Source: Armatimonadetes bacterium CG06_land_8_20_14_3_00_66_21 (GTDB taxonomy: Bacteria > Armatimonadota > Abditibacteriia > CG2-30-66-41). From it: a stretch of 14,016 nt of DNA. Positions within the stretch are counted from its first letter, which is position 1; each line of letters starts with the position of its first letter. Positions 6,885 through 14,011 of this stretch are shown in pieces. Position numbers and translations under genes: made by a program. The notes beneath the pieces were generated by a model that saw only the letters and a list, made by a program, of their open reading frames with translations, had not been told where the DNA came from and ran no database searches. The stretch is taken from the NCBI GenBank assembly GCA_002779825.1, contig PEVN01000166.1:1-14016 (forward strand), read 5' to 3'.

Positions 6885-6914
6885 AGTATAGCGCTCCCCT
6901 TCACAGGCTGTCAA
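6885..6914 (-). promoter_or_regulatory. sigma70-type promoter on the minus strand: TTGACA-N18-TATACT, driving the TPR-lipoprotein/pabB/ABC cluster
   Basis: The minus strand reads cgttcgTTGACAgcctgtgaaggggagcgcTATACTcgg. TTGACA is the reverse complement of 6909-6914 and TATACT of 6885-6890. The pair lies 65-75 nt upstream of the start at 6804/6813. Confidence 0.45.
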
Positions 6915-6968: not shown

Positions 6969-6997
6969 TTGACACCGAAACCTCTCGGCGTTAGAAT
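6969..6997 (+). promoter_or_regulatory. sigma70-type promoter on the plus strand: TTGACA-N17-TAGAAT, driving the NfeD-like/flotillin operon
   Basis: The plus strand reads gccgaTTGACAccgaaacctctcggcgtTAGAATcgttcc. TTGACA is at 6969-6974 and TAGAAT at 6992-6997, with the optimal 17-nt spacer. The predicted transcription start is near 7004, 48 nt upstream of the first candidate start codon at 7052. Confidence 0.5.
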
Positions 6998-7051
6998 CGT
7001 TCCTCACGTAGCTCGACGGCAAGAGGCAGTGCGCTTCGCAAGCTCCATCGG

Positions 7052-8134
7052 TTGACTCCGCAGCCGCGAGACCTTCCGAAACTCACAGCAGCAGGGCGCG
7101 ACGGCCTTCCCGGCCTCTTCGGTGCACAACAGGTGGTGTTCTCCGTGCAGGGACTCAAGACGCTGTTCGAGTGGTACAACCTGATCTACACGCTCCCGTT
7201 TGGGCTTTCGGTCCTCCTCATGATCGTCTCCGCCATGGGGCTGGGAGGGCACGACCACGACGTTTCCCCCGACGGCGGCCACGACCTCGACGCCGACCAC
7301 GATGTGGACGTAGATCATGACGTCGACGTAGATCACGACGTGGCCCTCGACCATGACCTCGACGTCGACCACGACCTGGCCGTGGACCACGACGTAGACG
7401 TGAACCACGACGTGGACATGGACCACGAAGTGGATCTGGACCATGACGCCGATCTGGACCACGACCTGGATCATGAGGTCGACTACGACTTGGCCGCCGA
7501 CCACGACGCTGACGCGGACGCGGACCACGGCGCAGACCACGAGGTCCATGCCTCCTCGAATGGAACGCACCACGGCGCGGATCATGGGGAAGGCATCTTC
7601 AAGGCACTCCTTTCACTGCTGGGTGTCGGCAAGGTACCGATCACCGTGCTTGTTCAGTCCTTCATGATCGCGTGGGCGATCATCGGGTGGAATGCGAACA
7701 TCTGGCTCGCCAAGGCCATGCGCGTGCCGGAGGTGTACATCCTCCCCTCCATGGCGGTCTCGTTCTTCGGCGCGCTCGCGGTGACGCGGCTCATGGCGAC
7801 GTGTCTGCACAAGCTCATGCCCAGTTCCGAGACCTACGCAAGGAGCCCGCTGGAGCTGCTCAGTGCTTCGGGCACCGCCCTCTTCAGGATTGACGGAAGC
7901 GGGGGGTACGCCGATGTCTACGATGAACAAGGAACGCTCCACCGGGTCCGCTGCCGTAGCCGTTACGGCGAGGTGCCGAAGGGCGCCAAGGTGACGCTGG
8001 TGGACTACCATGGCGACGGCCTCTACGAAGTAGCCGCCCCTACCCACAACGGTAGTAACGGCAACGGAGAAGCCAAAACGGGACCCGAGCCGCGGACGCG
8101 CTCCGTGGAAGTGCAAGCCGAGACGAGAAACTGA
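7052..8134 (+). CDS. NfeD-like (YuaF-type) membrane protein carrying an inserted His/Asp-rich hexapeptide repeat module. TTG start at 7052; GTG 7133/7136 is an alternative.
   Basis: Topology: TM1 (LIYTLPFGLSVLLMIVSAMGLGG), then a ~112-aa H/D-rich low-complexity region, then TM2/TM3 (VPITVLVQSFMIAWAIIGW…, VYILPSMAVSFFGALAVTRLMATCL). The C-terminus (GTALFRIDGSGGYADVYDEQGTLHRVRCRSRYGEVPKGAKVTLVDYHGDGLYEVAAP) has the pattern of the NfeD OB-fold beta-barrel. It sits immediately upstream of a flotillin gene, the canonical NfeD-SPFH pairing seen in B. subtilis yuaF-floT. Confidence 0.7.
   Translation: MTPQPRDLPKLTAAGRDGLPGLFGAQQVVFSVQGLKTLFEWYNLIYTLPFGLSVLLMIVSAMGLGGHDHDVSPDGGHDLDADHDVDVDHDVDVDHDVALDHDLDVDHDLAVDHDVDVNHDVDMDHEVDLDHDADLDHDLDHEVDYDLAADHDADADADHGADHEVHASSNGTHHGADHGEGIFKALLSLLGVGKVPITVLVQSFMIAWAIIGWNANIWLAKAMRVPEVYILPSMAVSFFGALAVTRLMATCLHKLMPSSETYARSPLELLSASGTALFRIDGSGGYADVYDEQGTLHRVRCRSRYGEVPKGAKVTLVDYHGDGLYEVAAPTHNGSNGNGEAKTGPEPRTRSVEVQAETRN
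7280..7525 (+). repeat. In-frame degenerate 18-nt tandem repeat, about 10 full units plus 3 partial, encoding (H-D-x-D-x-D)n. The whole H/D-rich region spans 7250-7585.
   Basis: Units read from the sequence: cacgacctcgacgccgac / cacgatgtggacgtagat / catgacgtcgacgtagat / cacgacgtggccctcgac / catgacctcgacgtcgac / cacgacctggccgtggac / cacgacgtagacgtgaac / cacgacgtggacatggac / cacgaagtggatctggac / catgacgccgatctggac, and so on. Units differ mainly at synonymous third positions (cac/cat, gac/gat, gtg/gta/gtc). Confidence 0.9.
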
Positions 8135-8187: not shown

Positions 8188-10098
8188 ATGAGTTGGGGGA
8201 TTCTGTTAGGCATGTTGGGCGTGGCGCTGATGATCACGCCATTCGTGAAGGGGAGCGTCGGCTCGCTGGGAGGCCTTATCCTCATGGGGTTCGGCGGGCT
8301 GCTCTTCGTGATCGACGTGCTGGTAATGGTCATCACGAAGCTGTATGTCAAGACCAGCGCCAATCAGGCATTCGTGCGCACGGGCAGCGGCGGGTCCAAG
8401 GTCGTGCTGGACGGCGGGTGCTTGGTCGTGCCCATCATCCACCGGGTGGTCCCGGTCTCGCTGGAAACCATGAAGCTCGATGTCGACCGGCGTGACCAGG
8501 AAGCGTTGATCACCAAGGACAACCTGCGCGTCGACGTGACCGGAGAGTTCTACATCAAGGTGGAGCCTGCCCGAGACGACATTCTCGCCGCCGCCCGCTC
8601 GTTGGGTGAGAAGTCGATCAACCCGGCGAATGTCTCGCAACTGGTCTTTGAGAAGCTGGTATCCGCGATTCGAAGCGTGGCTGCCACCATGGACTTGGTC
8701 GACCTGCACATGCGCCGAGACGACTTCGCGACCGCTGTCTTCGACAGCGTCCAGAACGAGCTGAAACCCAATGGTCTCACGCTGGAGACGGTCACCATCT
8801 CCCAGTTGGACCAGACCGACCCCAGCATGCTGAGCGATGAGAACATCTTCGATGCGCAAGGCAAGAAGAAGATCACCGAGATCACGGCTGCGGCCAAAGT
8901 CGAGCGGAACCGTTTGGAGCGCATGGCGGAGCAGGAGACAACGAAGCAGGACGTCGAGACGCGACAGCGCGTGCTGGACCTGGAGAAGGCCCAGAAGGAG
9001 GCCGAAGCGACCCAAGCCGCCGAGGTTGCCAACATCCAGGCTGGCAAGCAGCGCGAGAAGCAGGCGTACCAGATCGAGCAGGACCGGGCCGTGCTGGAAG
9101 CGGAGATCGCCAAGGACCAGCAAGTGAAGGAGCGGCAGATCGCCCAGGAGCAGTCGGTGGAGGTCGCTTCCATCCAGCGCGACAAGGCGTTGATCCTGCA
9201 ACGCCAGGAAAAGGAACAGACCGACATTGCTCGCGAGCAGGCGGTCCAGTCGTCGGAGATCGCCAAGGCGCAGGCCGTCGAGGTCGCCGAGCGGCAGAAG
9301 CAGATCGCCGTTGCCGAGCGGGATGCAGAACGCGCTCGCGCCGAGGAAGAAGCCCTGAAAGCTCAGGCTGCTCGGGAGTCCGCCAACCAGCAGGTCATCA
9401 CTGTTACCGCCGTCGCCGAAGCCGACCGCCATGCTCAGACCAAGCTGATCGAAGCCAAACAGGTGATCGAGCAGCAGAAGATCAAGGACCAGACGGAAGC
9501 CGACGTGCTGGCCTACACCGCCGTCAAAGAAGCTGAAGGCGACCAGGAAGCCGCCCAGCGAAAGGCAGACGCCCAACTCACCCTCGCCCAAGCCGCCGCC
9601 GAATCGAAGAAGCGCGAATCCGAAGGCGACAAGGCCATCAAGATGGTGGACGTCGAAGTCGAGCGCGAGCGGGTCAACGTCGAGCAGGCTCGGGTTGAGG
9701 TCGAGCGGCAGTCGCTGGAGAACACGCAGACCTTCGATAGGGCGGGCATTGAGCTGCAGAAGATCAAGCTCACCATCGAGGCCCAAAAGGAAGTGCAGAT
9801 CGCGCTGGCCAACAACATTGGTCAGTTCATGAGCCGCGGGCAATACACCGTGTACGGCGACCCCGACACGATGGCCAGCATGATGGAGCGGTTCATGAAA
9901 GGGCTGTCAATCGGGACGTTCGCCGACGGTCTGATAGCGGGCGCCTCGGAGGACGCCAAAGACGCCGTCCGCGGCCTCGCGCAGACCCTTGGCGGCCCAG
10001 TGGGCGCAGCCGTGGAGAAGCTCGTTGGCTCGGACACACCCGACGAGCCGGCACCCTCCGCGCCGGCCGATGCCGAGCCCGCCACCGCGGAGGCATAG
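8188..10098 (+). CDS. floT: flotillin-like protein, FloT/YuaG family: N-terminal membrane hairpin, SPFH/band-7 domain, long coiled coil
   Basis: 636 aa. Hydrophobic N-terminus. The SPFH region (FVRTGSGGSKVVLDGGCLVVPIIHRVVPVSLETMKLDV…ALITKDNLRVDVTGEFYIKV) aligns with B. subtilis FloT (VRGGGTFVLPVFQQAEPLSLLSSKLDV…) as recalled. After it comes ~350 aa of E/A/Q/K-rich heptad-like sequence (EAEATQAAEVANIQAG…ERQKQIAVAERDAERARAEEEALKAQAA…) and an acidic Pro/Ala tail. A strong RBS precedes it and the NfeD-like gene sits just upstream. Confidence 0.88.
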   Translation: MSWGILLGMLGVALMITPFVKGSVGSLGGLILMGFGGLLFVIDVLVMVITKLYVKTSANQAFVRTGSGGSKVVLDGGCLVVPIIHRVVPVSLETMKLDVDRRDQEALITKDNLRVDVTGEFYIKVEPARDDILAAARSLGEKSINPANVSQLVFEKLVSAIRSVAATMDLVDLHMRRDDFATAVFDSVQNELKPNGLTLETVTISQLDQTDPSMLSDENIFDAQGKKKITEITAAAKVERNRLERMAEQETTKQDVETRQRVLDLEKAQKEAEATQAAEVANIQAGKQREKQAYQIEQDRAVLEAEIAKDQQVKERQIAQEQSVEVASIQRDKALILQRQEKEQTDIAREQAVQSSEIAKAQAVEVAERQKQIAVAERDAERARAEEEALKAQAARESANQQVITVTAVAEADRHAQTKLIEAKQVIEQQKIKDQTEADVLAYTAVKEAEGDQEAAQRKADAQLTLAQAAAESKKRESEGDKAIKMVDVEVERERVNVEQARVEVERQSLENTQTFDRAGIELQKIKLTIEAQKEVQIALANNIGQFMSRGQYTVYGDPDTMASMMERFMKGLSIGTFADGLIAGASEDAKDAVRGLAQTLGGPVGAAVEKLVGSDTPDEPAPSAPADAEPATAEA

Positions 10099-10197: not shown

Positions 10198-10683
10198 GTG
10201 TCAACCGGACCACACGCCGTGCCAAGCCAGGAAGCCCTCACCGATCCGGTGGCCCAGTGGACGGGCCCGGCCGTGGACACCTTGGCCGTCTTCTGCAGCG
10301 ATGGGCGCTTCAAGCAGATGGTCGACCAGTTCCTCCGCGACGGGCTGAAGATTCCCAACTGCGATGTCTTCGCCGTGCCGGGCGGAGCAGGCTGGCTTAC
10401 CGTCGGGATGTTCAATCACAAGGAATGCGATGTCGCCAACCGCTGGCTCGACGCGCTGATCCAGAAACACAACCTGAAACGGGCCGTGCTGCTCGCCCAC
10501 GAAGATTGCGCCTTCTACAAGGAGAAATGCAAGGGTTCCAGCCCCCTGGAGATCCAGAAGCAGCAACTCACCGAGCTGCACGAGGCGGGCGACCGTCTGC
10601 AACGCATGGCCGGCAGTGTTCAGGTGGAGCTGTACTATGCGGACATCGTTGACGATCACGTGACGTTCAAACGGGTGAAGTAG
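10198..10683 (+). CDS. small (161 aa) protein with beta-carbonic-anhydrase-like zinc-ligand motifs (CxDxR … HxxC); a divergent or truncated beta-CA-fold protein
   Basis: FCSDGRF (C33, D35, R37), then CDVFAVPGGAG, then AVLLAHEDCAFY (H101, C104). Order and spacing mirror the beta-CA signatures C[SA]DSR … VxRNAGN … hhhhGHxxCG (compare E. coli CynT ISCSDSRL…VIRNAGN…IVICGHSNCGA, recalled). Third codon positions are GC-rich on the + frame, and an RBS precedes the GTG. The length-matched antisense ORF 10201-10686 is rejected. Confidence 0.45.
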   Translation: MSTGPHAVPSQEALTDPVAQWTGPAVDTLAVFCSDGRFKQMVDQFLRDGLKIPNCDVFAVPGGAGWLTVGMFNHKECDVANRWLDALIQKHNLKRAVLLAHEDCAFYKEKCKGSSPLEIQKQQLTELHEAGDRLQRMAGSVQVELYYADIVDDHVTFKRVK

Positions 10684-10727: not shown

Positions 10728-11699
10728 GTGTGGTTTGGGCTGTTTGCATTTGTCTACGTCCCTTTGTGCGTGACCCTCGAGGCCTCGGTGCCCTGCCGAG
10801 GCGGCCCCGACGAAGGGGACCACTACCTCTACATCCGCGCCCTGGGCGACACCTGCCGCCTCCCTATCCGGGCTCCGGTGTATGCGGGCCGCCTGGGAGG
10901 CGGTGACCGCGTCAGTCGCCAGATTCAGCATCCGCCCCTCTACTACCTGGTCGGAGCGGTGGTCTATCGGCTGGCAAAGCCTTGGGGACCGGCCGCGACA
11001 TGGAAGGCAGTGCGCGGCCTGAACATTGCTCTGGGTGTCGCAGCGCTGTACTTGTTGCTTCTCACCGCGCGCTTGGTCCTTTCCCGTCGTCGCGACCTCT
11101 CCTTCGCCCCGGTTGTGCTGTGTGCCTTGGTGCCCGCCTCCGCCTACTTGTCGTGTGTGGTCACCAATGAGACGGGGGCTGCGCCGTGCACCAGCGCAGT
11201 TCAGTATGCTTTGGCGCGCGTGATCTGGCTGGGACCGTCTCGACGCCGACTCGCGGCCTTGGCGCTGCTCCTCGGCTTGGGGGGGCTGACCAAGTACACG
11301 GTGCTGGTGTGGCTCCCTGCCTGCTTGTGCGTGGTGCCAGTGGTCGTGTGGCGTGCCCGGCGCAGTTGGCGCTTGGTGGCGGAGGGCGTAACGACCATCC
11401 TCACCGTCCCCTTGGCTGTGTGTGGGGGATGGTTCGTCCGGAACTACCTTCTCTACGGAGTCCCGGTGTTTCGCAACGTGATCAGCCCGCCCCTGTTCCC
11501 CGGCGGCTTGCCGCAGATCGCGGCTCTCCCTGACGAGCTGCTCCTGTCCTGCTGCCACTTGATCTACCGCTCGATCCCGATGGCGTGGACCCCCTATTGG
11601 CTGATCGCGCAAACCCCGGGCTGGACACGACTGCTCTGCAGAGGATCGTTCGTGATCACCGCGCCTATTGCGCTCGGCGCGGTTTTCAGGGCGGTTTAG
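10728..11699 (+). CDS. GT-C-fold glycosyltransferase, ArnT/PMT-like (GT83/GT39 type). This is the N-terminal 323 codons and it ends at an in-frame TAG (11697-11699).
   Basis: The first-loop motif PDEGDHYLYIRALGDT…KPWGP parallels E. coli ArnT [20 protein letters not shown]…KPIAGYW (recalled). A LLLGLGGLTKYTVLVWLPA segment parallels the ArnT GMGVMTKGFLALAVP motif. About 9-10 TM helices. GTG start. Confidence 0.7.
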   Translation: MWFGLFAFVYVPLCVTLEASVPCRGGPDEGDHYLYIRALGDTCRLPIRAPVYAGRLGGGDRVSRQIQHPPLYYLVGAVVYRLAKPWGPAATWKAVRGLNIALGVAALYLLLLTARLVLSRRRDLSFAPVVLCALVPASAYLSCVVTNETGAAPCTSAVQYALARVIWLGPSRRRLAALALLLGLGGLTKYTVLVWLPACLCVVPVVVWRARRSWRLVAEGVTTILTVPLAVCGGWFVRNYLLYGVPVFRNVISPPLFPGGLPQIAALPDELLLSCCHLIYRSIPMAWTPYWLIAQTPGWTRLLCRGSFVITAPIALGAVFRAV

Positions 11700-11717
11700 G
11701 TTCGGCGGCGGTGGGCC

Positions 11718-12041
11718 GTGCGCCGGCTCCGCCGCCGTGAGCTGTTCTTCCTGACCTCCACGCTGGCACTCCTCCTGCTCATTCTGGGGGGCTTCCGAGA
11801 GGCGTGTCTCGTGGATATGGGGGTGATGGTCTTCGTGGGACGCTACTACGTCGCCCTCTTCCCTGCCACGGCCCTATTGGCGGTGTGGTGGCTTCTCTCG
11901 CTGGGTAGGGCTTGGCGTCGTGCACCGCGGGCCGCCGCGTGTCTCGGCGTCTGCCTCCTTCTGGCCGTCTGGGCGGCCGCTTACCTGGGGGTCTCTCGGT
12001 TCTACAACCTCTACGGAGTCGGGGCGCCGCCGGAGTTGTAG
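11718..12041 (+). CDS. C-terminal three-TM segment, most likely the continuation of the GT-C glycosyltransferase. It is in the same frame as 10728-11699, separated only by the TAG and six sense codons.
   Basis: 11718 and 10728 are both multiples of 3. Reading through TAG gives …FRAV*VRRRWAVRRLRRRELFFLTSTLALLLLILGG… with 3 further TM helices. The combined length of ~438 codons and ~12-13 TM helices matches full-length GT-C enzymes. Confidence 0.5.
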   Translation: MRRLRRRELFFLTSTLALLLLILGGFREACLVDMGVMVFVGRYYVALFPATALLAVWWLLSLGRAWRRAPRAAACLGVCLLLAVWAAAYLGVSRFYNLYGVGAPPEL

Positions 12042-12085: not shown

Positions 12086-14011
12086 TCAGAACGAGAAGAT
12101 CTCGTGCCCCCGCACACCGACTGCGAAGTCGATGAGCACCCACAGCCCAGCGCTGACGAACTCCCCGAGGATCAGTCCGAAGGCGCCGGGCAGCACTTGG
12201 CGGTAGACGGCGCTCCCGCCGTACTTCATTACAGCGCTCTTCGCAGTCCACCCCAGCAGGATGGCGAACCAGAAGTTGACCATCGGCCACGTGGCGCCCA
12301 TGAGGTAGCCGATGGGATGGAACGGCCACCACAAGAACGTCCGGTGCAGGACCTGGATGAAGACCATGCTGCCCGCACCCGCCAGCATCGTCCAGACCGA
12401 CGGGAGCGACCGCGGCTCGCCGTTGACCAGCAGGTTCGCCGTCCACGAGCAGTACAGGTTCTTCGTGTAGTAGGTGGTGAACCACGTGTTGAGAGTCAAC
12501 CCGCCGTTGGCGTACACGAGGCGCATGTACGACCAGTACGACACCGCCGCCGCCACCACCACGCTCGCCGCCATCGCGCCGAGCAGCCTGCGTCGCTGGA
12601 TGCCGGCCATGTCGCCGATCTTCAGCCCCTGCACCAGGCAGGGCATGAGCGGGCTGCGGTTGTCCAGCATGAGCAGGTGGTCGAAGAACACCAGCATGGT
12701 CACGCGGGCCGGCCCGAACGCTTTGCTGCCGACGGCCGCGAAGAGCATGTTGATCGGCCGGAACGGGTGCTGTACATACAGCATCCCGCCTTCGCACACC
12801 AGCCGAACCGCGACCGTATGCACCAGGAAGAACAGCACGAACAACACGGTCGTGCTCCCCGCGCCCGCGCCGGCTGCGCCACCCCAGGCGATGATCGTCG
12901 CCATTCCCGCAACCAGGCAGAGCAGCGTGCCGCGCGCTGAGAGCGCTTCCTTCGCGGTGTAGTCGCGCTGCCGCCCCAGCACGCACTCCCACCACTGGCG
13001 CAGGTGCGGCCGCATCCCCCAGAACCCATACAGCCCGGCGACGACGATGCCGCCGATCATCTGGTGGGCGACGAACGCCTTCACCGGAAAGGCCTGCACG
13101 TTGGGCATCGGGAACCCCGCCATTGCCCCGAGGAGCTGCTGCACCAGGAAGAAGAAGTAGAAGAACCACAAGCTGAACGACAGGTTCGTCGGCAGCAGGA
13201 ACGTCAGCCCGATGATGCTGAACAGCACGCGGAGGCGCAGCAGTTGAAGGGTGTCCCACGGCTTCCCCGTGAAGTACTGGCCCAGCGGGATGAGGTGCAC
13301 GTTGATCGCCGGCACAAAGGGGAAATGGAAGTGCAGCCCGTTGAGGGTGTGGAGGCAGAACGGCAACAGGAAGCACCACCACATGAGCTTGTTGCGCACC
13401 AGCGTTGGCAGCGCCCACCGGTGCCCCGCCTCGACCTCCGCAAACTGAACGGGCAACTGCACCAGCGGGAACACCAGCTTCTCGTTCTCCACCCACTGCC
13501 GCCGCAGCAACGCCGACAGCCCGAAGAGCACCAAGTACACACCCGCAATCAGGATGCCCCACCCCAACACCGGACTCCACCAGGCACTCCACGGAATCGG
13601 CGACGAGGGCGCCCCTTCGTACAGCCCGATCACCGCCTGTTCGGAGCCGGGATGTAGCCACTTCGGGAGGTTGGGGAGGATCAGCTCATCCCACCGGTTC
13701 TCCGGTCCGGCGAAGTAGAAGGGCCCGGCGATGTACGGGATCAGCAGCCCGACCAGCCCGAACGACGGGATCCCCGCCGCGACCAGCAGCATCACGAACA
13801 CAGTCAGCAACTCAGCCCGCGTCAACTGCTTGCCGAGGCGCGCCAGCAGCGGGTTGACGCCGACGGACAGCACGAGAAACAGGAAGAAGCTGGCAACGGG
13901 GAACGCCGTCAGACCCACCCATGTGCCCTTCATCACCAGGTCGCTGTAGGGGATGGCGAGGGCGAGGGCGGCTGAGAGGAGGAGACCGAGGAGGAAGGAG
14001 CGGAGGGTCAT
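12086..14011 (-). CDS. large polytopic integral membrane protein of unknown function (641 aa, at least 14 predicted TM helices, Trp/Phe-rich)
   Basis: ATG at 14009-14011. Strongly hydrophobic segments run along the whole length (LLGLLLSAALALAI, LTAFPVASFFLFLVLSV, LLTVFVMLLVAAGIPSFGLVGLLIPYIAG, WGILIAGVYLVLFGL, and others). The overlapping same-strand ORF 11874-13661 is R/G/A-rich junk. I recognise no family confidently. Confidence 0.75.
   Translation of the reverse strand: MTLRSFLLGLLLSAALALAIPYSDLVMKGTWVGLTAFPVASFFLFLVLSVGVNPLLARLGKQLTRAELLTVFVMLLVAAGIPSFGLVGLLIPYIAGPFYFAGPENRWDELILPNLPKWLHPGSEQAVIGLYEGAPSSPIPWSAWWSPVLGWGILIAGVYLVLFGLSALLRRQWVENEKLVFPLVQLPVQFAEVEAGHRWALPTLVRNKLMWWCFLLPFCLHTLNGLHFHFPFVPAINVHLIPLGQYFTGKPWDTLQLLRLRVLFSIIGLTFLLPTNLSFSLWFFYFFFLVQQLLGAMAGFPMPNVQAFPVKAFVAHQMIGGIVVAGLYGFWGMRPHLRQWWECVLGRQRDYTAKEALSARGTLLCLVAGMATIIAWGGAAGAGAGSTTVLFVLFFLVHTVAVRLVCEGGMLYVQHPFRPINMLFAAVGSKAFGPARVTMLVFFDHLLMLDNRSPLMPCLVQGLKIGDMAGIQRRRLLGAMAASVVVAAAVSYWSYMRLVYANGGLTLNTWFTTYYTKNLYCSWTANLLVNGEPRSLPSVWTMLAGAGSMVFIQVLHRTFLWWPFHPIGYLMGATWPMVNFWFAILLGWTAKSAVMKYGGSAVYRQVLPGAFGLILGEFVSAGLWVLIDFAVGVRGHEIFSF

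Follow-up and report, generated by a model that had tools for sequence, protein, structure and literature searches.

A hypervariable, alternating His/Asp loop in a YqiJ-family NfeD protein encoded beside a flotillin gene

A yqiJ-like gene paired with a flotillin gene

The 14,016-nt stretch of DNA analysed here (hereafter the window) comes from a contig of Armatimonadetes bacterium CG06_land_8_20_14_3_00_66_21 (PEVN01000166.1); unless a strand is given, coordinates below refer to its forward strand. It carries a yqiJ-like gene of the NfeD2 type (7145-8134, 329 aa, GTG start) and, 53 nt downstream and co-oriented, the gene of a YqiK-type flotillin (SPFH/Band_7; 8188-10098, 636 aa; Pfam Band_7 at E = 7.9e-22). 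Our subject is the loop between the first two transmembrane (TM) helices of the YqiJ-like protein, TM1 and TM2, a His/Asp-rich segment of 115 aa (residues 36-150; 7250-7594) with a net charge of -44. This expanded, regular and hypervariable loop is an undescribed feature of a known kind of protein and operon, and no description of a His/Asp loop in the YqiJ family was found in the literature searched. The YqiJ family and the flotillin operon set the context for any mechanism of the loop.

By homology, fold and operon alike, the window gene is a YqiJ-family NfeD of the NfeD2 type. The protein itself matches the Pfam family YqiJ_N (PF21001) at 21.7-22.1 bits, under the gathering cutoff of 23 bits, probably because the long loop splits the match, and all eight of its closest relatives match PF21001 (best E = 3.9e-9). 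When the loop was left out, a profile of the family aligned with E. coli YqiJ in hhalign at a probability of 96.9% (E = 1.4e-10, 135 columns, YqiJ residues 54-190); pairwise identity to E. coli YqiJ was undetectable by BLASTP. The named homologues carry the labels YqiJ family or DUF1449 family, and one has been auto-annotated as RcnA, presumably via its His-rich loop. One of the eight close relatives has a weak Pfam match (E = 5.8e-4) to the C-terminal trimerisation domain of T4 gp5, which is probably compositional.

The fold was modelled with AlphaFold2 from an alignment of 85 homologues. TM1 (residues 10-30; 7172-7234) carries a conserved W-x-N-L-I motif, in which W10, N12 and L13 are nearly invariant among the homologues, and is modelled with a predicted local distance difference test score (pLDDT) of ~90, in agreement with the Kyte-Doolittle profile. 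Behind the loop come a short helix (residues 149-159; 7589-7621) and a G-x-G-K-V-P motif with nearly invariant G160, G162 and P165, then TM2 (residues 166-191; 7640-7717), which is also seen in the Kyte-Doolittle profile, and TM3 (residues 195-224; 7727-7816), both with pLDDT >90. The protein closes with an NfeD-type OB-fold beta-barrel of five strands (residues 242-297; 7868-8035; pLDDT >90). No Pfam OB-domain model matches the window protein at E <= 0.1; Foldseek placed the model closest to YbbJ (8z5g, E = 6e-5), with 3cp0 and YuaF (2k14, E = 4.5e-4) as further matches, and a profile search of the PDB retrieved YuaF at E = 0.004.

E. coli offers the nearest described system. Its yqiJ-yqiK pair has the same gene order and strand as the window pair, and YqiJ shares with the window protein the aromatic-N motif of TM1, a loop, a G-x-G-K/R-x-P motif, TM2, TM3 and the OB fold. 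At the position of the loop YqiJ has a short His/Asp stretch, ALDAHLDHYD, within a vestigial loop of ~20 irregular residues, whereas the window protein has ~115 residues of (x-D)n with His every six. For the engagement of TM helices and OB domain with an SPFH ring on the cytoplasmic side, QmcA-YbbJ and YuaF serve as our working model. In the QmcA-YbbJ cage (PDB 8z5g), attributed to Tan et al. 2024, the YbbJ equivalent of the OB domain reportedly binds the SPFH partner. YbbJ (148 aa) and YuaF differ from the window protein in being much shorter, with no room for a long loop, and in belonging to other NfeD subgroups.

The flotillin of the window shares 32% identity with E. coli YqiK (E = 1e-66), and the pair of yqiJ-like and flotillin genes was found in nine of nine related genome loci from several phyla, on the closest long contig (L011) and in E. 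coli. An NfeD2-SPFH2 operon of this kind was described by Hinderhofer et al. 2009 (PMC2636767). By analogy with the QmcA-YbbJ structure (8z5g) and with FloA-NfeD pull-downs, both from other subgroups, the yqiJ-like product would physically partner the flotillin; PDB searches yielded no structure of a YqiJ-YqiK complex.

Translation of the yqiJ-like gene most likely starts at GTG 7145. A Shine-Dalgarno-like AGGTGG (7131-7136), read from the sequence, lies 8 nt before this codon, the start and the gene end match the choice of the gene caller on public contigs, and the MQGLK N-termini of the closest homologues agree with it. Given the Shine-Dalgarno spacing, the homologue N-termini and the public gene calls, we dropped the alternative starts at 7052 and at 7133, the latter having been considered in an earlier note on this DNA. 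A sigma-70-like promoter candidate, TTGACA-17-TAGAAT (6969-6997), lies ~150 nt upstream of the start, so that the leader would be ~140 nt; it is a pattern match from a consensus scan (11/12). A second promoter-like site, also 11/12, points the other way at 6885-6914 on the reverse strand, and both sites sit in the 330-nt gap that separates the yqiJ-like gene from the gene of a TPR protein. An Rfam search detected no RNA family in the window.

Composition, register and variation of the loop

The repeat peptide quoted in the earlier note was found in the forward frame of the open reading frame (ORF) 7052-8134. His36 begins at 7250 and the final Asp-His pair ends at 7585, and the low-complexity tract extends to 7594. 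Residues 36-150 comprise 40 Asp, 21 His, 14 Val, 12 Ala, 8 Leu, 7 Gly and 4 Glu, with neither Lys nor Arg, so that His makes up 18% of the loop and Asp plus Glu 38%. Within it lies a core that is strictly in phase (residues 46-131; 7280-7537), where 39 of 43 positions of one phase are Asp or Glu and the other phase is held by His (14), Val (12), Ala (10) and Leu (8), plus a single Met, a single Tyr and others. The loop contains 34 D-x-D triplets, compared with 10.2 +/- 2.8 in 100,000 shuffles of its own residues (z = 8.6; shuffle maximum 23), and no DD dipeptide. The commonest spacing between His residues is six (10 gaps). The alternating Asp/His repeat is genuine and departs strongly from chance, and the pattern first described in the earlier note, with Asp at every second residue, His or aliphatic residues in the other phase and His returning every six residues, is borne out.

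Known repeat families were compared with this pattern. The sole NCBIfam matches of the window protein are to the Ser-Asp repeats of MSCRAMM adhesins (SdrC/D, ClfA/B), which are likewise dipeptide repeats of the form (x-D)n. We rejected an MSCRAMM adhesin, since the matches reach 25-28 bits against cutoffs of 999-2,500, are driven by composition and fall in a protein with an inner-membrane architecture of three TM helices and an OB fold; the MSCRAMM repeats are extracellular stalks anchored to the Gram-positive wall, whereas the window protein has no LPXTG motif and no A domain. A left-handed beta-helix of hexapeptides was set aside as well (no Hexapep match at E <= 0.1, no [LIV]-G hexads in the loop, and a coil in the AlphaFold2 model), as was an RTX beta-roll (no GGxGxD motif anywhere in the protein).

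A first search for homologues was word-seeded and steered by the repeat, with 416 matches for the full protein and 2 for a loop-less query. All 120 proteins from this search had such loops (26-142 aa; 7 Lys/Arg in 8,197 residues), but these statistics are biased and circular, and the search was therefore redone with a hidden Markov model that is blind to the loop. This profile, covering TM2 to the OB fold only, matched 3,238 of 1.84 billion representatives in HMMER. The loop census was taken from the 91 full-length proteins among the best 150 of these 3,238 matches. All 91 have a low-complexity TM1-TM2 loop rich in Asp/Glu and/or His, 17-128 aa long (median 54), with an overall composition of 22% Asp, 16% Ala, 13% His, 11% Gly, 8% Val, 7% Glu and 0.8% Lys plus Arg, that is, an Asp:Glu ratio of ~3:1. 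Acidic residues are enriched about twofold at all even lags up to 12 and stand at 0.06 at lag 1; the residue between two acidic ones is Ala in 34% of cases, His in 20% and Val in 16%, and His residues are spaced by 4, 6 or 8.

Individual members depart widely from the window protein. An orthologue with 63% identity (P0003) has a loop of 36 aa instead of 115; the loops of P0243, P0261 and P0206 consist of Asp, Ala and Val and are nearly free of His; and those of P0134, P0233, P0239 and two Ca. Angelobacter genes (L005, 860-1603; L010, 4001-4663) are rich in His, Ser, Ala and Gly at the same position, with 2-11% Asp plus Glu. The conserved trait is a loop free of Lys and Arg and rich in carboxylate and/or imidazole groups, usually in a strict alternate-position register. 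A hydrophobic second face is not conserved across the family, since the non-acidic phase is mainly Ala, His and Val.

In the DNA, the hexapeptide units correspond to a diverged tandem repeat of 18/36 nt (7271-7470), detected by Tandem Repeats Finder and by a repeat-family search. Tandem Repeats Finder reported 11.1 copies at a period of 18 nt with 75% matches, and a period of 36 as well; in all, periodicities of 6, 12, 18 and 36 nt are present in the tract. Identity between units is no more than 60-75%, and they differ at many synonymous sites and use mixed codons. Because the matches are as low as 75% and synonymous codons are mixed while the amino-acid pattern is kept, the repeat is an old one whose DNA has diverged. 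An antisense ORF of 193 aa (7004-7585, reverse strand) spans the repeat. We treated it as spurious, with no evidence of a gene, because in all homologues the forward frame continues into the conserved TM and OB regions; that the reverse frame is open follows from the codon pairs GAC/GTC and CAC/GTG being reverse complements.

The repeat is also a site of intense strain-level variation. Contigs that encode the identical flotillin protein were found in 68 blocks of the public collection, and for the comparison we used 13 independent, near-identical Armatimonadetes assemblies over 4.9 kb, drawn from ENA, JGI and NCBI and made with different assemblers. The 345-nt repeat (7250-7594) holds 49 of the 60 polymorphic sites, against 11 in 4,566 nt of flank (odds ratio 68, p = 2e-47). 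These sites form a hypervariable mosaic segment (7261-7471) with eight alleles in the 13 assemblies, all of equal length, which are block mosaics of two main haplotypes, A and B; identical variant blocks turn up in separate samples. Both haplotypes are ~91% acidic in the Asp phase. Asp residues lost between A and B are offset by gains in the same phase elsewhere, and the remaining changes are mostly exchanges among Val, Leu, Met and Ala; in allele B two His are changed, to Pro and Arg. The same tendency holds beyond this lineage, in that the loop is more variable than the remaining protein in eight of eight other 90%-identity clusters (including P0025, P0007 and P0013), three of which have loop insertions or deletions of 14-25 residues.

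Several deposited copies of the gene in Armatimonadetes metagenome-assembled genomes are partial (P0269, P0271, P0001, P0272), which would fit assemblies breaking in the heterogeneous repeat. Elsewhere in the window, 13 of the few mismatches that separate contigs L012 and L014 from it crowd the first 120 nt, and L012 has three more at 163-170; this cluster at 1-170 may reflect either another variable site or an artefact of the assembly edge.

As to the origin of the variation, some variant 10-14-mers of allele B match other registers of the repeat, offset by 18 or 36 nt, which points to short intragenic conversion as one source. These shifted matches, together with the tandem DNA periodicities, the fast change of length among relatives and the fact that E. 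coli works with a vestigial loop, could also be taken as signs of a neutral low-complexity expansion, in which slippage by 6, 12 or 18 nt and unequal recombination inflate a mere TM1-TM2 connector and the period of two is the mutational signature of an expanding dipeptide unit. We regard such an expansion as improbable, since thousands of representatives, spread over several phyla and differing in their repeat units, have this unusual composition at the same place, and Lys plus Arg are held at 0.8%. The Asp phase has moreover stayed acidic in both divergent alleles in spite of the low identity of the DNA units, with same-phase gains compensating the losses. Other sources of variation were tried and rejected. 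A DNA palindrome or hairpin driving the repeat was dropped after a blastn comparison of the tract with its reverse complement gave no match and the DNA fold z-score was only -1.9; only two weak inverted repeats were detected. A diversity-generating retroelement was dropped because the substitution spectrum is not adenine-specific. No paralogous donor for allele B was found on the same contigs.

Predicted disorder and orientation

The loop is predicted to be intrinsically disordered. In the AlphaFold2 model residues 36-148 form a coil without secondary structure (pLDDT 40-50), and a second run on the 63%-identical orthologue with the shorter loop likewise returned a coil, with pLDDT 40-55 over both runs, whereas the other parts of the protein score above 90. 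In a charge-hydropathy analysis the tract, at a mean hydropathy of 0.38, lies well on the disordered side of the boundary at 0.55.

The earlier note had read the same alternation as an amphipathic beta-strand with an Asp face and a His/hydrophobic face. More broadly, the (x-D)n tract might form a strand, hairpin or sheet on the membrane or between subunits, either constitutively or when triggered by cations or low pH. The period of exactly two is what such a structure calls for, and the hydrophobic moment is indeed highest at 180 degrees (0.62, compared with 0.05 at 100 degrees); beta-branched Val is frequent in the window protein, and sheets between loops would be geometrically possible in a ring of many subunits. 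A precedent exists in the designed peptide PFD-5, Pro-Asp-(Phe-Asp)5-Pro, which has the same (hydrophobic-Asp)n alternation and self-assembles into beta-sheets when added Ca2+ neutralises its Asp face (PMC12002065). PFD-5 is a short synthetic peptide made strongly hydrophobic by its Phe residues, whereas the window loop, at 10 times the length, alternates Asp with His, Ala and Val, is anchored at either end and is modelled as a coil. A fixed amphipathic strand does not agree with the absence of any modelled strand in the two proteins, with the charge-hydropathy result or with a family-wide second face made mainly of Ala, His and Val. Pairing would in addition be opposed by 44 like charges on one face unless stoichiometric counter-ions were present, and the Asp face would be repelled by an inner leaflet rich in anionic lipids. 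A loop that ranges from 17 to 142 aa, and shifts by 14-25 aa inside 90% clusters, is hard to square with a defined sheet. Free Ca2+ in the cytoplasm is very low, which also counts against such a structure. We therefore find a beta-structured loop doubtful, both as a fixed strand and in its triggered forms.

The orientation of the protein was judged from the distribution of positive charge. The family means of Lys plus Arg are 0.13 in the N-tail, 1.28 in the pre-TM2 segment, 0.68 in the TM2-TM3 turn and 4.4 from the end of TM3 onward, which under the positive-inside rule gives N-out, loop-in and C-in. The same result follows from the requirement that, with three TM helices in the protein, the OB domain meet the cytoplasmic SPFH domain; a cytoplasmic orientation is stated for YqiK and QmcA (PMC10434171), and the QmcA-YbbJ cage juts into the cytoplasm (PMC13086221). 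On these charge counts and the YqiK-type orientation the His/Asp loop is most likely cytoplasmic. The earlier note was thus right to set the repeat between TM1 and TM2 and to place the short TM2-TM3 turn across the membrane from it. Binding to mineral surfaces, which the note also suggested, is improbable for a loop inferred to lie in the cytoplasm.

A periplasmic loop would need TM1 to act as an N-in anchor or signal sequence, so that the exported loop could bind cations or minerals of the envelope, possibly of relevance to the carbonate- and iron-rich groundwater from which the metagenome-assembled genomes come. A segment without Lys or Arg and with many acidic residues would suit translocation, V-S-A at residues 28-30 resembles a signal-peptidase site, and the TM2-TM3 turn of the window protein does contain K190 and R193. 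Nevertheless, TM1 is not a signal peptide. The N-tail of the family is net acidic, with 0.13 Lys plus Arg against 0.88 Asp plus Glu, and lacks the positive charge of a Sec n-region, while the helix is conserved in sequence and confidently modelled; the repeat accordingly does not sit in a cleaved signal-peptide-like region, an outcome that the earlier note had allowed for. Lys and Arg favour C-in (~5.7 inside compared with 0.8 outside), and in the opposite orientation the OB domain would lie in the periplasm, cut off from the flotillin; K-L-Y-V-K comes before the SPFH domain of the flotillin, and this domain is stated to be cytoplasmic in E. coli. We hold a periplasmic location to be very improbable.

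Possible roles of the loop and its genomic surroundings

The reading that we favour, at a probability of roughly 40%, is that the loop is a disordered, membrane-tethered His/Asp polyanion and a putative site of divalent-cation binding at the assembly of flotillin and NfeD. Held at the membrane by its two ends, and on the cytoplasmic side like the OB domain, the loop would function through its bulk chemistry, not through a fixed fold. Its carboxylates and imidazoles would reversibly bind divalent cations such as Zn, Ni, Co, Fe(II), Mn and Mg, and with each subunit of a many-membered ring contributing one loop, a brush that binds cations with high capacity and low affinity could arise at the flotillin-NfeD complex. 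Binding of cations, or protonation of His, would neutralise and compact the loop, and this compaction could feed back onto the assembly of the complex or onto its clients. Because only composition and spacing would matter in this proposal, the exact sequence and length would be free to vary, and a loop that is a hotspot of repeat-mediated recombination would fit such freedom.

Multivalent cation binding by a His- and Asp-rich loop free of Lys and Arg is plausible from the sequence. The His-rich loops and tails of RcnA, CDF/ZnT and ZIP transporters, HypB, SlyD, UreE and Hpn have a high capacity and a modest affinity for Ni, Zn or Co. Like the window loop, these segments are of low complexity, flexible and rich in His and Asp/Glu, and they are carried by membrane or chaperone proteins; they differ in that there is no homology and in that the window loop is dominated by Asp in a strict alternate register. 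The window protein, unlike these metal-handling proteins, is no known transporter or metallochaperone. The loop may thus work in the manner of the His-rich loops of metal proteins without being related to them. Two phenotypes give weak hints of a link to metals: the E. coli yqiJ deletion was a hit for silver sensitivity, and a knock-out of the Shewanella flotillin SO1377 had less free iron, with the neighbouring DUF1449 protein proposed to be a metallochaperone.

The partner supplies further constraints. The flotillin has a net charge of -27, and all its segments are net acidic except the N-terminal TM stretch (net +1), by which a basic docking surface for the loop was ruled out. Since the flotillin is acidic and the inner leaflet anionic, the loop should be an extended brush when counter-ions are lacking. 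A purely physical role could follow from this, in which the loop is a polyanionic spacer or entropic brush with no specific ligand that keeps the membrane surface, the subunits or the acidic flotillin wall apart, sets their spacing or keeps clients soluble. We consider such a spacer unlikely, though several observations agree with it. The loop is predicted to be disordered in both AlphaFold2 runs, it is strongly charged without any Lys or Arg, adjacent acidic residues are almost wholly avoided so that the charge is spread evenly, tolerance of length and sequence is extreme, and repulsion from an acidic flotillin is to be expected. Acidic disordered regions and polyanions have known roles of this kind, and FloA-NfeD is reported to stabilise unfolded proteins (PMC11222466). 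Against a charge brush, the His-rich members with 2-11% Asp plus Glu would not behave as polyanions at the pH of the cytoplasm, the strong enrichment of His throughout the family (13%) would be unneeded, and a pure charge model does not predict the ~3:1 preference for Asp over Glu. As the variants span loops with His only to loops with Asp only, the property they share is one of metal-ligand side chains, not of charge alone.

Several points weigh against cation binding. A strongly acidic stretch right after TM1 is unusual for a cytoplasmic loop, and the positions between the Asp residues are most often taken by Ala. One cation chemistry cannot cover the whole family, as some members are nearly free of His and others nearly free of Asp. 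Composition alone shows no physiological role, because any His/Asp-rich peptide binds metals in vitro, and the silver and iron phenotypes come from genome-wide or pleiotropic studies. The short loop of E. coli indicates that a long one is dispensable for the core function of the family, and the period-2 spacing could be in part a by-product of slippage by a 6-nt unit.

A bolder extension of the cation-binding proposal, to which we give only a slim chance, would make the flotillin assembly a cation-responsive compartment, in which the His/Asp loops form a sub-membrane ion-exchange gel that gates the flotillin cage. Dozens of loops with a charge of about -44 each would store or sense divalent metals or protons, and the loaded gel would collapse to a cross-linked, possibly beta-rich state, gating assembly or the access of clients. 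Recombination would keep the loops hypervariable, with selection acting on the ligand pattern alone.

The gene that follows the flotillin gene (10198-10683) encodes a 161-aa Pro_CA_2 (PF20393) protein with CSDGR and HEDC motifs, which we take to resemble the zinc-ligand motifs of beta-carbonic anhydrases. This neighbour is not conserved, since in L011, the closest relative, an MTTB-family gene follows the pair instead. After the carbonic-anhydrase-like gene come two hydrophobic proteins of 323 and 107 aa (10728-12041), whose family was not recognised, and on the reverse strand a 641-aa DUF6785/DUF6784 protein (12086-14011). The AT skew is strongly negative (~-0.45) over 11001-12000.

Roles proposed for NfeD proteins alongside bacterial flotillins include the promotion of oligomerisation and the stabilisation of unfolded clients. 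Our analysis indicates that much of the YqiJ branch has a long, Lys/Arg-free, period-2 His/Asp loop, inferred to lie on the flotillin side of the membrane. If the loop were only a tolerated linker, it would be an ordinary low-complexity region in a known protein family. Otherwise it gives a concrete handle on putative metal or proton binding at the flotillin microdomain and ties in scattered phenotypes, namely the free iron of Shewanella and the silver sensitivity of E. coli, and its mosaic hypervariability would be a clean natural case of selection acting on a pattern of composition and spacing, not on sequence.

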